Source: Ruminococcus sp.
GTDB taxonomy: Bacteria > Bacillota > Clostridia > Oscillospirales > Acutalibacteraceae
Direction: 5' to 3'
NCBI GenBank assembly: GCA_045545935.1
Contig: JAZQBV010000005.1
Coordinates: 160,112-224,111, forward strand
DNA length: 64,000 nt
Shown: piece after piece, positions 35,517 through 38,556 of the stretch
Layout: the number at the start of each line of letters is the position of its first letter
Position numbering within the stretch: the stretch's first letter is position 1
Made by a program: the position numbers and the translations under genes
The notes under the pieces: generated by a model
Told to the model about the DNA's origin: nothing
What the model saw: only the letters and a program-made list of their open reading frames with translations
The model's database searches: none

Positions 35517-35577
35517 TTATTTTTTATTGATATACCATACGCTTTTAGTTAATATAAGCTTGCAAGGAGGAAGCACC

Positions 35578-36012
35578 ATGAAATTTACACTCAATATTGA
35601 CAAGACTTTAGATGAAGAGGTGATTGTCAATGCACACGAAAAAACACCCCTGATAGAGCAGATAGAGCGTCTTGTAATTAATGATACTTTCGAGCTTATC
35701 GGCTACAAGAGTGATAAGACAGCATCAATTCTTGATTTTGCAGATATCAACTGCTTTGTTGTCAGTGATAATAAGGTGTATGCCTATACGGCTGACGACA
35801 AATATATCATCAAGCTAAGACTCTATCAGTTGATGGACAAAGTTCCGCACAGCTTCATCAAGGTCAACCAATCGTGTATTGGCAACATCAGACAAATCTC
35901 TCGTTTTGACGCATCGCTTGCAGGCTCATTATTAGTAAAATTCAAGTGTGGATATACAGATTGTGTATCCAGACGACAACTAAAAGAATTTAAAGAAAGG
36001 TTTGGTATTTAA
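35578..36012 (+). CDS. Stand-alone LytTR-domain transcriptional regulator
   Basis: LRLYQL...SFIKVNQSCIGNI...VSRR LytTR domain, no receiver domain; AAGGAGG RBS before ATG 35578. Confidence 0.88.
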   Translation: MKFTLNIDKTLDEEVIVNAHEKTPLIEQIERLVINDTFELIGYKSDKTASILDFADINCFVVSDNKVYAYTADDKYIIKLRLYQLMDKVPHSFIKVNQSCIGNIRQISRFDASLAGSLLVKFKCGYTDCVSRRQLKEFKERFGI

Positions 36013-36013
36013 T

Positions 36014-36433
36014 ATGAATAAGTATTTCAAAGAGTTTTTACATCGTGGTCTGATGTTTTCAGGCTTCGGACCAATCATTGCCGGTATTATCTATTTCATC
36101 GTTTCAAGGACTGTTGAGGGTGGCATTACTTTAACAGCAGCACAGGTTTTAATTGCGATAGTATCTACCTATCTGCTTGCTTTTATTCACGCAGGAGTAT
36201 CTGTGTTTAATCAGATGTATCATTGGCCACTACTAAAGTCAGTTGCGTGTCATTTTGCTTGCCTGTATTTAGCGTATGCACTTTGCTATATCGTCAATTC
36301 ATGGATTCCGTTTGTGCCACAGGTTTTATTGATATTCACAGCAATTTTTGTGGCTATTTACCTTGTTATTTGGCTCATAGTTTTTATAGTTATCAAAGCC
36401 ACATCAAAAAATCTAAACAAAAAGATTTCATAA
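36014..36433 (+). CDS. DUF3021-family membrane protein (LytTR-system partner)
   Basis: Four hydrophobic segments; FLHRGLMFSGFGPII, WPLLKSVACHF and IYLVIWL patterns; starts 1 nt after the LytTR stop. Confidence 0.78.
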   Translation: MNKYFKEFLHRGLMFSGFGPIIAGIIYFIVSRTVEGGITLTAAQVLIAIVSTYLLAFIHAGVSVFNQMYHWPLLKSVACHFACLYLAYALCYIVNSWIPFVPQVLLIFTAIFVAIYLVIWLIVFIVIKATSKNLNKKIS

Positions 36434-36467
36434 CAACAGAGGGTGCTACTTGTGTAGCACCCTCTGT

Positions 36468-37151
36468 TTATGTTGTTAGCTCTCTCAGCCTTTTTTTGTC
36501 AAGTATCTTCACACCGCGTCTTGACAGCTCCACAATACCTTCATTCTCAAAGTATTTGAGCATTCTCGACACTACTTCACGTGCAGAGCCCATATATTTT
36601 GCTATAAGGCTGTGTGTCAGCATTACTGTGTCTGTGTCGATTCTTGTTATCTCATCAAGCAAGAATATCGCAAGTCTTTTGTCCATACTCATAAATAATA
36701 TCTGTTGCATTATCCACATCATATTAGTAAAGTTTTCGAGTGTACTCTCAAGAGCGTACATTTTTGCGTCAATATATTTGTTGTTTATATACTCAAACGC
36801 CTCATCATTTATGTAGTAACAGCTCGAGTCTTCTTCAACATCGACAAAAATATCAAAGGTGATAGGGTCATTTATATATGACGAAGATAGAATGCAGATG
36901 TCGTCTTTATGAATTCTCATCAGCGTCAATTCTTTACATTCTTCTGACATTATGTACACTCTCAGCGAACCGCTGTTTAGCAGAATAACTCCGCCGTTAT
37001 CGCTACCGTCATATACAGTGGTACCTTTTCTTAGCTTTTTTTCAGACGAGTTTTTGTAGATGTATTCTTTGTCATAATCGGACAGCTCCTCCCAGAACGG
37101 AAAGTGCTCTGCACATTTAATTGTGAAAGTGTCTTTGTTCATAGTTTTCAC
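36468..37151 (-). CDS. Crp/Fnr-family transcriptional regulator
   Basis: N-terminal cNMP-type beta-roll, KRLAIFLL linker, HTH THSLIAKYMGSAREVVSRMLKYF. Confidence 0.92.
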   Translation of the reverse strand: MKTMNKDTFTIKCAEHFPFWEELSDYDKEYIYKNSSEKKLRKGTTVYDGSDNGGVILLNSGSLRVYIMSEECKELTLMRIHKDDICILSSSYINDPITFDIFVDVEEDSSCYYINDEAFEYINNKYIDAKMYALESTLENFTNMMWIMQQILFMSMDKRLAIFLLDEITRIDTDTVMLTHSLIAKYMGSAREVVSRMLKYFENEGIVELSRRGVKILDKKRLRELTT

Positions 37152-37164
37152 CTTTTGTATTTAT

Positions 37165-37180
37165 TGTGACCATAGTCACA
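37165..37180. promoter_or_regulatory. Crp/Fnr binding site
   Basis: Perfect TGTGA-CCATAG-TCACA, 14 nt upstream of the Crp/Fnr gene start. Confidence 0.85.
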
Positions 37181-37283
37181 GAAATAGTATAGAAAATAAT
37201 GTAGTATATCAACAAGATAATAATATATCTTTTGTACTTAAAACATAGTATCGACTATAAAATATACTAAAGGAGGCATTACT

Positions 37284-37667
37284 ATGGCAAACCACGAAAG
37301 CTTACCATTATTGTTACTTGACAACAGTTCTATGATTTCTGTAATCAACGAGGGCGAATTCAAATGCTCAAATATGACATTTGAAGATGCAAAGATGTTG
37401 CTCGAGATTTTTGACGAGAAAGAGTATCTCAAGTGCTTTTCAGACCCGGCTATCGAGTCTGTTATGTTTGAACAGCTCGAGATTGAGAAGCGTAGCTTCG
37501 AGTACAAGCACATCCGTAATATGAGAGTCGGTCAGCAGGCTATAGTATTCAAGCTTTACAGAACTCCTTCATTGTCAAACCCGATTATTTTAGCAGATGA
37601 CGGGGTAGAGGCTAAGAAAATCCAGAACGTCTATGCTTATTGCCAGCACCTCATTCGTGTCAAATAA
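37284..37667 (+). CDS. Small hypothetical protein, possible DUF1874 (STIV B116/YddF/AcrIII-1)-like fold
   Basis: Strong AAAGGAGG RBS and own terminator; motifs NS...GEF, T-FEDAK-LL, GQQAIVFKLY and terminal HLIRV recall DUF1874. The ORF is secure; the family call is tentative. Confidence 0.55.
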   Translation: MANHESLPLLLLDNSSMISVINEGEFKCSNMTFEDAKMLLEIFDEKEYLKCFSDPAIESVMFEQLEIEKRSFEYKHIRNMRVGQQAIVFKLYRTPSLSNPIILADDGVEAKKIQNVYAYCQHLIRVK

Positions 37668-37686
37668 TATAATCATTGTAGCACAA

Positions 37687-37720
37687 AACCCGCAGCACAC
37701 ACAAGTGTTGCGGGTTATTT
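37687..37720 (+). terminator. Intrinsic terminator after the 37284 gene
   Basis: AACCCGCAGCAC/GTGTTGCGGGTT stem followed by ATTT. Confidence 0.75.
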
Positions 37721-37781
37721 ATTTACAAACAAGTTGTTTGTCTATCTTTTGTGTTAATTTGTTTGCTACAAATTTTTATCA

Positions 37782-38029
37782 CCTTCGATTCCCAATCTGC
37801 AAACAAAAAACGACACCAGATAAGGTGCCGTTTTGTTGGAGCAGATGATGTATGCTTACAATGAATTTTATATAATTCTCGTCTTATGTCATTGTTGCAC
37901 ATAAAAGTTCATCTGCGCTCTCCCTAAAAACGCTCCACAGGAGAGTTATATTAACGGTCGCCTTCGATTCCCAATCTGCAAACAAAAAACGACACCCGAT
38001 AAGGTGCCGTTTTGTTGGAGCAGATGATG
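37782..38029. repeat. 69-bp direct repeat pair (37782-37850 and 37961-38029) containing the tRNA-Gly 3' end and its terminator
   Basis: CCTTCGATTCCCAATCTGCAAACAAAAAACGACACC(A/C)GATAAGGTGCCGTTTTGTTGGAGCAGATGATG occurs twice with one mismatch. Confidence 0.95.
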
Positions 38030-38089
38030 GGAATCGAACCCACACGATCAGCTTGGAAGGCTGAAGTTCTACCACTAAACTACATCTGC
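38016..38089 (-). tRNA. tRNA-Gly (TCC)
   Basis: GCAGATG...CAGCC-TTCCAAG-CTG...GGTTCGATTCC...CATCTGCTCCA cloverleaf; promoter TTGACA-17-TAAAAT at 38160-38132. Confidence 0.97.
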
Positions 38090-38163
38090 ATATTGCAGGG
38101 ACAAGACCCTGCCTTTTTTATTGCAAGTGATATTTTAGCACAAACAAAAGTGTTTGTCAAACA

Positions 38164-38556
38164 TTATTGAATATTATTACCTATCCTGTAAATCTCCTGA
38201 TTATCTATATCTATCTCAGGAATAATTACTGGTTTTATACCACAGTTTGCGGTAATAGTAGTAATGATAGCCTTGACATACGGGAACAGTGATTTGAATG
38301 TCTGAGTGTGTATCTGCTCTTTCTTTTCGCCTTCTTTGTAACTAAAGATGCCAACAGCAACAACGTGAATTTTAAATTTATCAGGGTTGTTAGAATCTGC
38401 AACCTCTATATCAAACTCACCTTTGCACATATTGTTATTAGCATATTGTACGTTATAACTGTATTTGTTTGAAAGTTTAATCTGTGTGCCGTTCTCAAGT
38501 GTTGCGACAAATTCTATTTTATCTACCTTATATCCCTGCAAAGAAACTATAGCCAT
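38164..38556 (-). CDS. SecB-like chaperone
   Basis: 130 aa with C-terminal LFPYVKAIITTITANCGIKPVIIPEID, the SecB-family consensus. Confidence 0.8.
   Translation of the reverse strand: MAIVSLQGYKVDKIEFVATLENGTQIKLSNKYSYNVQYANNNMCKGEFDIEVADSNNPDKFKIHVVAVGIFSYKEGEKKEQIHTQTFKSLFPYVKAIITTITANCGIKPVIIPEIDIDNQEIYRIGNNIQ

Follow-up and report, generated by a model that had tools for sequence, protein, structure and literature searches.

A predicted Crp/Fnr-type operator between a regulator gene and a divergent DUF1874-fold gene in a Ruminococcus genome

Genes and signals at the locus

The window, by which we mean the whole 64-kb stretch of a Ruminococcus sp. contig that was analyzed, contains a gene for a Crp/Fnr-family regulator and, divergent from it, a gene starting at 37284 for a DUF1874-like protein. 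The features that we assigned in and around this gene pair are given below, with the evidence for each in brackets.

36435..36468, strand not assigned: hairpin terminator of 15 pairs, common to the regulator gene and a convergent DUF3021 gene (hairpin scan)
36468..37142, minus strand: Crp/Fnr-family regulator, 224 aa, start ATG 37142 (domain scores, 3DV8 match, orthologue N-termini)
37148..37152, minus strand: Shine-Dalgarno GGTGA of the regulator (sequence; a CAT...TCACC block is conserved in the intergenic alignment)
37165..37180, strand not assigned: operator TGTGACCATAGTCACA, of the form TGTGA-N6-TCACA, which equals TGTGAC-N4-GTCACA (sequence and conservation across loci)
37179..37184, plus strand: degenerate -35 CAGAAA, with 3/6 matches to TTGACA, 17 nt before the -10 (conserved in related promoters)
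37184..37212, minus strand: candidate regulator promoter, TTGATA (37212-37207), 17-nt spacer and TACTAT (37189-37184) (consensus scan only, weak)
37202..37207, plus strand: predicted -10 hexamer TAGTAT of the DUF1874-like gene (conserved box-to-(-10) distance)
37272..37276, plus strand: Shine-Dalgarno GGAGG of the DUF1874-like gene, 7 nt before the ATG (sequence; conserved in alignments)
37284..37667, plus strand: DUF1874 / STIV B116-fold protein, 127 aa (fold search of an AlphaFold2 model)
37687..37716, plus strand: terminator-like hairpin after the DUF1874-like gene (hairpin scan)

Given the hairpin at 37687..37716, the DUF1874-like gene would be monocistronic. The regulator start had been placed in the sequence-only reading at 14 nt from the operator box, counting from GTG 37151, and this has to be corrected, since this GTG is itself part of the Shine-Dalgarno sequence and the N-termini of the orthologues align to ATG 37142 (MNKDTF...). 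Here, the edge of the box is 22 nt from the ATG, with ~12 nt between it and the Shine-Dalgarno sequence. For the regulator's own promoter, the intergenic alignment with relatives showed no -35/-10 pair that is clearly conserved, and the candidate from the consensus scan would begin transcription inside the box, near 37177. Since the box is in or over the regulator leader, negative autoregulation is to be expected from the geometry; a dimer bound there, on or downstream of any regulator promoter, would probably lower the regulator's own expression.

Operator and promoter geometry

The perfect TGTGA-N6-TCACA that had been noticed at 37165-37180 is indeed present, with TGTGACCATAGTCACA being read from the DNA at these positions, and we found it to be the only zero-mismatch copy in both the 64-kb window and the 1,705,735-bp genome, for which ~2 would be expected from base composition. 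The box sits in a 141-bp gap that has the genome's sole solid Crp/Fnr gene on one side and the divergent 37284 gene on the other, and the chance of a random site falling in this gap is, by our arithmetic, ~2e-4. In a scan of the genome's non-coding DNA, the best two sites were the 37165 box and one in the promoter of a desulfoferrodoxin-ferritin-thioredoxin operon. Among the natural copies of the repeat, the half-sites do not vary but the loop does, its spacing being N5 or N6 (N5 in most copies), and such variation is unusual for Crp/Fnr dimers. Judged from its sequence and its conservation, the box is a genuine Crp/Fnr-type operator, and it very likely binds the only regulator of this type that the genome encodes, being positioned so as to activate the DUF1874-fold neighbor.

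The TAGTAT hexamer at 37202-37207 was likewise confirmed, and begins 21 nt past the end of the box, which puts the predicted transcription start at ~37214 and the box centre at -41.5. More conspicuously, this distance is kept in 28 related promoters, which represent three kinds of target (DUF1874-like, thioredoxin and desulfoferrodoxin) from several lineages: the half-site GTCACAGAAA is 20-22 nt before a TAnnnT -10 hexamer in all of them, and exactly 21 nt in 24. In fact, the succession of GTCACA-GAAA and then TAnnnT at 21 nt (20-22) is alike in the three kinds of promoter. The GAAA (37181-37184) comes directly after the box in nearly every related promoter (GAAT occurs once), and its side faces the target gene in 19/19 box-carrying DUF1874-like loci. 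Moreover, the weak -35 is overlapped by the box, which is a trait of class II promoters, and CAGAAA is kept in nearly all 28. The earlier reading of a class II position is thus supported by comparison. A regulator dimer on TGTGAC-N3/4-GTCACA would be placed at -41/-41.5 of the promoter, whose -10 (TAGTAT) is good and whose -35 (CAGAAA) is degenerate, and, going by the conserved geometry, would activate the DUF1874-like gene by a class II mechanism. There are further -10-like hexamers in this AT-rich region, for instance TATAAA/TAAAAT at 37257-37264, and so a second, box-independent promoter is possible.

Sites that cover a -35 region can act in repression as well, and it might be supposed that the regulator represses both divergent genes, with the box occluding the -35 of constitutive promoters, also those of thioredoxin and desulfoferrodoxin, until a signal brings relief. 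A site spanning -34 to -49 would be compatible with such occlusion, the -10 hexamers are fairly good, and stress genes of Firmicutes are often derepressed, as with PerR and Rex. However, the -35 is uniformly degenerate (caGAaA) in 28/28 promoters and the distance to the -10, which is precisely that of the class II position, varies by no more than 1 nt, while a degenerate -35 and a fixed -10 distance are typical of activator-dependent rather than repressed promoters. Moreover, in the relative G013, which has the same synteny, regulator, box and promoter have all been lost together, with no now-constitutive promoter retained. We therefore regard dual repression as improbable, though it deserves more weight than the other alternatives discussed below, and class II activation remains our preferred reading of the geometry.

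The inverted repeat could alternatively belong to an RNA hairpin or cis-regulatory RNA instead of being protein-binding DNA, as a 6-bp stem with a loop of 3-4 nt is possible if it is transcribed in the regulator leader, and a 'DUF1874 motif' RNA has been published (Weinberg et al. 2017, PMC5737381). That motif, a multistem, integron-attC-like element of consecutive intergenic regions (PMC5737381), is unrelated to the box and was rejected as its identity; an Rfam scan of 36900-37800 returned nothing below E 0.4, with matches at chance level only. Invariant half-sites around a variable loop are the opposite of compensatory stem changes. Moreover, the same -10 distance is found at the thioredoxin and desulfoferrodoxin promoters without a divergent gene, where the repeat hence lies upstream of the transcript. 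We give hardly any credence to an RNA element here.

The regulator and its redox targets

A PF13545 profile search of the genome gave one solid Crp/Fnr hit, namely the window regulator, whose helix-turn-helix domain scored 55.3 bits against PF13545 (HTH_Crp_2, cut-off 27) and 31.3 bits against PF00325 (Crp, cut-off 21). An N-terminal cNMP-binding-like barrel was found as well, with a PF00027 score of 24.4 bits, just below the cut-off of 27.5, and a full-length match to 3DV8 (E 3.5e-47, residues 12-222). The latter, a Crp/Fnr regulator of Eubacterium rectale and the closest solved relative, shares the helix motif REV[VI][ST]R and the motifs DCTG and MCLLSASC, but retains a cysteine set that is partly lost in the window clade; it is a structural-genomics entry without an assigned function, ligand or DNA site. 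In an alignment to CRP, the recognition helix SAREVVSR lies along SRETVGR, which bears out that REVVSR keeps the R-E-x-x-x-R contacts of CRP. Moreover, the recognition helix GSAREVVSRMLKYF is near-identical among close orthologues, which fits one common DNA specificity.

The likeness to Escherichia coli CRP extends to its class II promoters (e.g., galP1, with TGTGA-N6-TCACA at -41.5), as the window box has the same half-site and the same N6, with the site replacing a poor -35 at the predicted -41.5 equivalent. In contrast, the sensor domain lacks the cAMP-binding motif, as had been proposed: equivalents of FIGE and RSA are absent from the CRP alignment, the cAMP contacts of CRP proper (G71, E72, R82 and S83) were not found in the regulator, and the score against the CRP equivalog NF008732 is 31.1 bits, far from the 266-bit cut-off. 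The subfamily also differs from CRP in that its sites are mostly N5 and its regulon is tiny and directed at oxidative stress, not carbon metabolism. Nor is the regulator FNR proper, with Cys10 being the sole cysteine in the N-terminal 60 residues and NF008365 scoring 19.9 bits against a cut-off of 228. In the NCBIfam scan, the only matches of the regulator were to CRP, FNR and FixK, all far below threshold.

Elsewhere, orthologues of the regulator adjoin thioredoxin and CoA-disulfide reductase genes, with the same box upstream of thioredoxin, and the regulator genes of the subfamily are often beside a CoA-disulfide reductase-rhodanese gene. The recurrent targets of the subfamily are thioredoxin, desulfoferrodoxin (superoxide reductase) and ferritin. 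A second box in the same genome, an N5 copy at C14:125010 (TGTGATTAAGTCACAGAA, 20 nt before TATAAT), lies upstream of the desulfoferrodoxin-ferritin-thioredoxin operon. In the regulator tree, the window clade is sister (97/97) to the thioredoxin-linked regulators L117-L120 and is nested in a 96/98 clade with the remaining thioredoxin-linked regulators, to which family the window protein is 55-62% identical. By these sequence relationships, the regulator is a member of a thioredoxin-linked Crp/Fnr subfamily of Oscillospirales, and is very likely part of an oxidative-stress regulon found in anaerobes of the gut and rumen, rather than of a cyclic-nucleotide/ring-nuclease switch. In our literature search, no Crp/Fnr protein was found that had been described as activating thioredoxin or superoxide reductase genes in Clostridia.

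The signal is probably a redox one, and would most likely be oxidant or thiol stress sensed via cysteines, rather than a cyclic nucleotide as in CRP. FLP of Lactobacillus casei and Lactococcus lactis, whose site (CCTGA-N4-TCAGG) differs from the box, is likewise a Firmicute Crp/Fnr protein without the iron-sulfur N-terminus of FNR and with a link to oxidative stress. As stated in a passage of PMC7162690 (citing Gostick 1998, Scott 2000), FLP gains DNA binding on forming an intramolecular disulfide. By analogy, the redox regulon suggests a cysteine switch of this type, although the cysteine positions differ from those of FLP and the window clade keeps only two of the conserved subfamily cysteines. 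The subfamily set consists of ECSG, DxCxLS and SASC, with SECY in closer members; here, the window regulator keeps only the DxCxLS (C83) and SECY (C109) cysteines, while DNGG stands in place of ECSG and SSSY in place of SASC, so that two conserved ones are lost. Together with the long stem branch of the clade (0.53), this loss suggests that the window-clade regulator may not sense, or even act, in the way its thioredoxin-linked orthologues do.

The distribution of the box follows that of the regulator. Among 61 relatives, the strict pattern gave 12 hits as compared with 1 control hit, with 9/12 coming from the seven genomes that have both the regulator and the pattern, and a strict box is present in 10/61 relatives, mostly regulator carriers. 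The strict-pattern hits in G018 (contig C59), G019, G025 and G056 were set aside as apparently coding DNA or chance overlaps with -10-like sequences. In four box-less genomes, the regulator is absent from 4/4. This distribution bears on Rex, the NADH/NAD+-sensing repressor, as another possible binder: its sites (like TTGTGAA-N4-TTCACAA) have a consensus that contains TGTGA-N6-TCACA, and a homologue is encoded at C5:140393-140539 of the same genome. However, Rex is present in 53/61 relatives, including G013 and many box-less genomes, while the box tracks the Crp/Fnr regulator. Moreover, the box has C/G (TGTGAC...GTCACA) where Rex sites have A/T, and most natural copies are N5. Rex was rejected on its phyletic distribution, and we consider it highly improbable as the protein that binds this palindrome.

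The DUF1874-fold protein and its place in the regulon

By sequence, the 37284 protein matches PF08960 with E 6.8e-4 and 20.2 bits, which is under the 26-bit cut-off, and the same profile is weakly matched by 10/22 of its relatives. It has no NCBIfam, PHROG or PADLOC hits, and PDB searches with the single sequence and with a profile gave no meaningful hit. A search with Foldseek using the AlphaFold2 model (mean pLDDT 77) proved more telling, as the top 16 PDB hits were all DUF1874 proteins with probability 0.99-1.00. The matches to 8Y7F/8Y7G, 2J85, 2X4I, 2J6B and 6SCF had TM-scores of 0.5-0.6 and probability 1.00, and Csx1-Crn2, B116 and AcrIII-1 are among the top hits. As modelled, the protein has the DUF1874/AcrIII-1 fold (PF08960), which is also that of the AcrIII-1/Crn2 ring nucleases and STIV B116.

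For the proposal of a ring-nuclease-like output, the fold has thus stood up, while the catalytic residue and the expected cellular context have not. There is no invariant or near-invariant histidine column in alignments of 23 and 22 DUF1874-like relatives, and the near-invariant cysteines of the family are two, C51 and C120. In a weak hhalign alignment (E 0.56), Ser53 is opposite the histidine of the IGHAD stretch of phage THSA-485A AcrIII-1, which we take to be the catalytic one. In AcrIII-1, by contrast, the catalytic His47 (SIRV1 gp29) is absolutely conserved and essential (bioRxiv 10.1101/778746). Moreover, Cas10 (Csm1/Cmr2; TIGR02578, TIGR02577) gave no match in the genome, the completeness of which is 100%. 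A setting for cA4 signalling, be it a type III CRISPR system or a virus, was not found here, and the gene is chromosomal and predicted to be co-regulated with thioredoxin and superoxide-reductase genes.

Most DUF1874-like genes are without the box and without the regulator as a neighbor. The box (N5 or N6) is found at 19/78 DUF1874-like loci, and the regulator is the divergent neighbor at 15/80, pairs of this kind being spread over two distinct clades of the regulator tree. When neighbors were clustered for the 80 loci, just two recurred, namely the regulator (15/80) and an ABC transporter specific to one lineage, and the regulator is the sole recurrent neighbor that is not confined to one lineage; distant DUF1874-like homologues had no recurring partner on their short contigs. 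The conservation of the adjacency is limited to two sub-lineages. Six loci retain the box upstream of the DUF1874-like gene without an adjacent regulator gene, which speaks for the box acting on the DUF1874-like gene as well as on the regulator. In five of these six, the box is directly behind a hairpin with a terminal T run, and 4/6 of such genomes encode the regulator elsewhere, beside thioredoxin and with a box of its own.

These data bear on the idea of a self-contained two-gene switch, in which a ligand of cyclic-nucleotide type would control cyclic-oligonucleotide degradation by a ring nuclease. The cNMP-like barrel of the regulator, the AcrIII-1/Crn2 fold of its partner and the recurrence of the divergent pair at 15/80 loci are all in keeping with it. 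However, the cAMP contacts are absent from the regulator, the conserved targets of its orthologues are thioredoxin and superoxide reductase, and a second target operon exists in the same genome. On the output side, the DUF1874-like family is without a conserved histidine, with Ser53 at its place in the weak alignment, and the genome encodes no Csm1/Cmr2 and has no PADLOC hits. We consider such a ligand-and-nuclease module very unlikely, and the self-contained switch was not upheld, as the regulator subfamily also serves thioredoxin and superoxide-reductase promoters (including that at C14:125010) and most loci lack both the box (present at 19/78) and the regulator as neighbor (present at 15/80). 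Instead, it seems likely to us, on comparative sequence grounds, that the operator of the sole Crp/Fnr regulator combines class II activation and autorepression, under a redox signal, with a DUF1874-like gene that was recruited to it. This gene would be a lineage-specific recruit to the redox regulon.

To our knowledge, little has been learned, apart from PerR, Rex and sigma-B, about how oxygen or thiol stress is sensed by strictly anaerobic Firmicutes of the gut and rumen, and we know of the DUF1874 fold so far only from viral anti-CRISPR proteins and CRISPR ring nucleases. Here, the mechanism of class II activation and probable autorepression is a textbook one, and the new part is the regulon member: the locus adds one predicted operator-promoter pair to a small Crp/Fnr-type regulon of thioredoxin, superoxide reductase and ferritin, and a DUF1874-fold protein appears to be wired into this regulon in some lineages. 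Tentatively, and with more doubt than confidence in the whole, we propose that a histidine-less DUF1874 branch with near-invariant C51 and C120 might act in the redox regulon of strictly anaerobic Clostridia from gut and rumen as a stress effector and not as a cyclic-oligoadenylate nuclease. Its control would fall to a copy of the thioredoxin regulator that was relocated and evolves fast, has lost the greater part of the sensor cysteines and binds operators of 15 bp as well as 16 bp. The natural N5 and N6 operators and the loss of two cysteines offer ready comparisons for the signal and for the tolerance of half-site spacing.

The box and the adjacent regulator

The box, read from the window as TGTGACCATAGTCACA, is a perfect TGTGA-N6-TCACA palindrome, just as the sequence-only reading had it (N6 or N5 being the gap between half-sites). 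The features discussed here are as follows.

37165-37180: the box, within the 141-bp gap between the regulator gene (36468-37142, minus strand) and the divergent 127-codon DUF1874-like gene (37284-37667, plus strand)
37202-37207: -10 hexamer predicted from the conserved box-to-hexamer distance; transcription would begin near 37214, placing the box's dyad centre at -41.5
37212-37184, minus strand: candidate regulator promoter TTGATA-17-TACTAT from a consensus scan; its start would be inside the box

At up to one mismatch, the pattern occurs nine times in the window versus 3.7 expected, with 37165-37180 as the sole perfect copy. In fact, the whole assembly (1,705,735 bp) contains the perfect form once only, where base composition predicts about two. 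In a genome search with PF13545, the regulator was the one solid Crp/Fnr member, the other match (22.9 bits) being under the cut-off. That the sole perfect palindrome adjoins the sole regulator of the corresponding family is not chance.

The regulator most likely begins at ATG 37142, because AAGGTGA precedes this codon at a proper distance and the N-termini of orthologues align there, while GTG 37151, from which a box-to-start distance of 14 nt had originally been counted, falls within the ribosome-binding site; the distance from box edge to start codon is therefore 22 nt. Its domains are HTH_Crp_2 (55.3 bits) and Crp (31.3 bits), together with a cNMP-binding barrel that remains sub-threshold (24.4 bits, cut-off 27.5), and it scores far under the cut-offs of the NCBIfam models for CRP, FNR, FixK, and other named members. 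Among solved structures its closest relative is 3DV8 (E 3.5e-47), a Crp/Fnr protein from Eubacterium rectale that carries no annotation. No experimental work on the regulator turned up in our literature searches. In an alignment with E. coli CRP, SAREVVSR matches SRETVGR and thus retains R-E-x-x-x-R, and nothing corresponds to the FIGE...RSA cAMP contacts; both earlier claims, a CRP-like recognition helix and a sensor domain lacking the cAMP-binding motif, are borne out.

Promoter geometry and the box in relatives

Evidence for the role of the box comes from its spacing in 28 promoters. These belong to DUF1874-like genes, whether or not the regulator is adjacent, to a second DUF1874-like clade, to thioredoxin (seven genomes), and to desulfoferrodoxin (two). 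Here, the last box base is followed after exactly 21 nt by TAnnnT in 24 promoters and after 20 or 22 nt in the remaining four, the hexamers being TAGTAT, TAAAAT, TAATAT, TATTAT, TACATT, TATATT, TATACT, and TATAAT. By our own estimate, the chance of TAnnnT falling at a single fixed offset is ~0.04 in DNA of like composition, and this arrangement is common to at least six independent promoter classes. Moreover, GAAA follows the box in all promoters except one (GAAT, at the window genome's own desulfoferrodoxin site), and together with the final two bases of the box it makes a degenerate -35 (caGAaA) 17 nt from the -10. This conserved distance backs the -10, start, and box position that had been predicted from the window alone, and gives strong comparative support to the box as a putative class II activator site.

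We also compared 80 genome loci encoding a DUF1874-like relative, with 78 upstream regions scorable. The regulator is the divergent neighbour at 15 loci, and the box, at up to one mismatch in its 16 specified positions, is found in 19 upstream regions, always with its GAAA side facing the DUF1874-like gene; the other scorable regions resemble control DNA. Six loci retain the box without an adjacent regulator gene. At five of these it lies directly behind a hairpin ending in a T run, apparently the terminator of the upstream gene, and at the sixth the contig ends 4 nt short of the box. Four of these six genomes encode the regulator elsewhere, and none is encoded in four box-less genomes. Likewise, a relative's genome (G013) with the same LytTR-DUF3021-[ ]-DUF1874-like-ABC synteny has no regulator, box, or any strict-pattern site genome-wide. 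Together, the retained boxes and the regulator-less genomes argue that the box serves the promoter of the DUF1874-like gene and that its presence tracks that of the regulator.

As for the surroundings, the genes directly upstream (35527-36433) are a pair encoding a LytTR protein that lacks a receiver (PF04397) and a membrane protein of the DUF3021 family (PF11457). Synteny of the DUF3021 gene with the regulator/DUF1874-like pair is shared by G018, G024, and G013, and extends to the LytTR gene where the locus compared reaches that far. At the G013 locus (L004 / L027, locus positions 1431-1495), the regulator gene, box, and promoter are missing, and only a 63-nt gap separates the DUF3021 and DUF1874-like genes. 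In close relatives (L002-L004), an ABC-transporter ATPase/permease gene comes after the DUF1874-like gene; the window has tRNA-Gly (38016-38089) and repeats of terminator-like sequence in its place (37700-38100), pointing to a rearrangement at this locus. Further along, the minus strand (38164-38556) encodes a protein of 130 aa that scores 27.4 bits against SecB (PF02556), narrowly above the 26-bit cut-off; to our knowledge, SecB is not expected in a Firmicute.

The DUF1874-like protein and the wider regulon

The product of 37284-37667 matches PF08960 (STIV_B116-like, formerly DUF1874) weakly (E 6.8e-4), as do 10 of its 22 relatives. With the AlphaFold2 model (mean pLDDT 77), the top 16 PDB fold matches are all DUF1874 structures (Foldseek probability 1.00, TM-score 0.5-0.6), including Csx1-Crn2, STIV B116, SIRV1 ORF114a, AFV3-109, and AcrIII-1. 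The family is compact, amounting to 660 matches when clustered at 90% and to 87 clusters at 50%, and C51 and C120 are among its near-invariant residues. In a weak profile alignment, Ser53 is opposite the His in the IGHAD stretch of AcrIII-1 from phage THSA-485A, a His that we take to be the catalytic residue. Alignments of relatives revealed no conserved histidine in the family, in contrast to AcrIII-1, which depends on an absolutely conserved His47 (bioRxiv 10.1101/778746). A genome search found neither Csm1 nor Cmr2 encoded.

Orthologues of the regulator (54-62% identity) from other genomes of Ruminococcus and Acutalibacteraceae are convergent with a thioredoxin gene, and five of nine such orthologues are also divergent from a CoA-disulfide reductase-rhodanese gene across a gap of ~35 bp. 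At L013, L014, L015, and L016, the two start codons are only ~35 bp apart, and so each gene's promoter must lie inside the other's coding region; at these loci the gene of a Cys-rich membrane protein extends into the operator of thioredoxin, its C-terminal codons (…KNVTLSQK) encoding the box. TGTGAC-N3-[GA]TCACAGAAA precedes seven of the nine thioredoxin genes, with no perfect box upstream at L015 and L017. In the window's own genome, the second-best non-coding site, and the only other good one, is TGTGATTAAGTCACAGAA (contig position C14:125010), situated 20 nt before TATAAT and ahead of a desulfoferrodoxin-ferritin-thioredoxin operon (C14:125010-126390, outside the window); in another relative (G054), a box is likewise upstream of desulfoferrodoxin. 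Across 61 relatives, the strict pattern gave 12 matches versus one for a reversed control, nine of the 12 falling in seven regulator-bearing genomes. Rex could read a similar palindrome, though its presence in 53 of the 61 relatives, box-less ones included, does not explain the box distribution.

The regulator belongs to a small regulon for oxidative stress and has been relocated, and the DUF1874-fold protein without the nuclease histidine is a lineage-specific recruit to that regulon; the closed cyclic-nucleotide and ring-nuclease module envisaged in the sequence-only reading is unsupported. Regulatory systems of this general kind are already well known. What is new is this member of the family, the recruitment of a DUF1874-fold target, the loss of sensor cysteines, and the variation in operator spacing.

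Probable autoregulation, sensing, and operator spacing

In the window's clade, the box is 5-12 nt from the regulator's ribosome-binding site, which means that the start of the regulator transcript must be in or beyond the box. From this geometry, negative autoregulation is a reasonable inference; in the intergenic alignment, the TTGATA and TACTAT elements are not clearly conserved in relatives. Class II activation of the divergent gene with probable autorepression is the best-supported reading of the box, and we consider it likely. Autoregulation is not a family trait, since in a second DUF1874-adjacent clade the box is more than 100 nt from the regulator start, and at thioredoxin-linked loci there is none upstream of the regulator.

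The window's DUF1874-adjacent regulators group together in a maximum-likelihood tree as a single clade with 100/100 support; its stem is long (0.53 changes per site), and its sister group (97/97) consists of thioredoxin-linked regulators whose genomes carry a boxed, non-adjacent DUF1874-like gene. Another DUF1874-adjacent clade is placed elsewhere, and therefore the pairing arose twice or was repeatedly lost. The subfamily's conserved cysteines are in ECSG, DxCxLS, and SASC, plus SECY in closer members; in the window's clade, those of ECSG (now DNGG) and SASC (now SSSY), at about residues 50 and 90, are lost, and C83 and C109 are kept. The long stem and the two lost cysteines suggest that sensing in this clade may have changed or decayed. 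Our best guess from the regulon's makeup is that the signal would be oxidant or thiol stress sensed through cysteines. For such sensing, the nearest described precedent is the Lactobacillus casei protein FLP, in which disulfide formation confers DNA binding (PMC7162690).

The recognition helix is nearly unchanged across close orthologues, and hence one protein should read both the N6 site of the window and the N5 site on contig C14. Switching between these operator spacings is unusual for the Crp/Fnr family. Natural operators alternate between N5 (15-bp; L026, L029-L038) and N6 (16-bp; L025, L028, L043, L048, L053, L055, and L063, like the window) several times within one regulator subfamily. 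It is the distal half-site that shifts, by 1 bp, while the promoter-proximal one keeps its distance to the -10. N6 is seen only in regulator/DUF1874-like intergenic regions, and the thioredoxin and desulfoferrodoxin sites are all N5.
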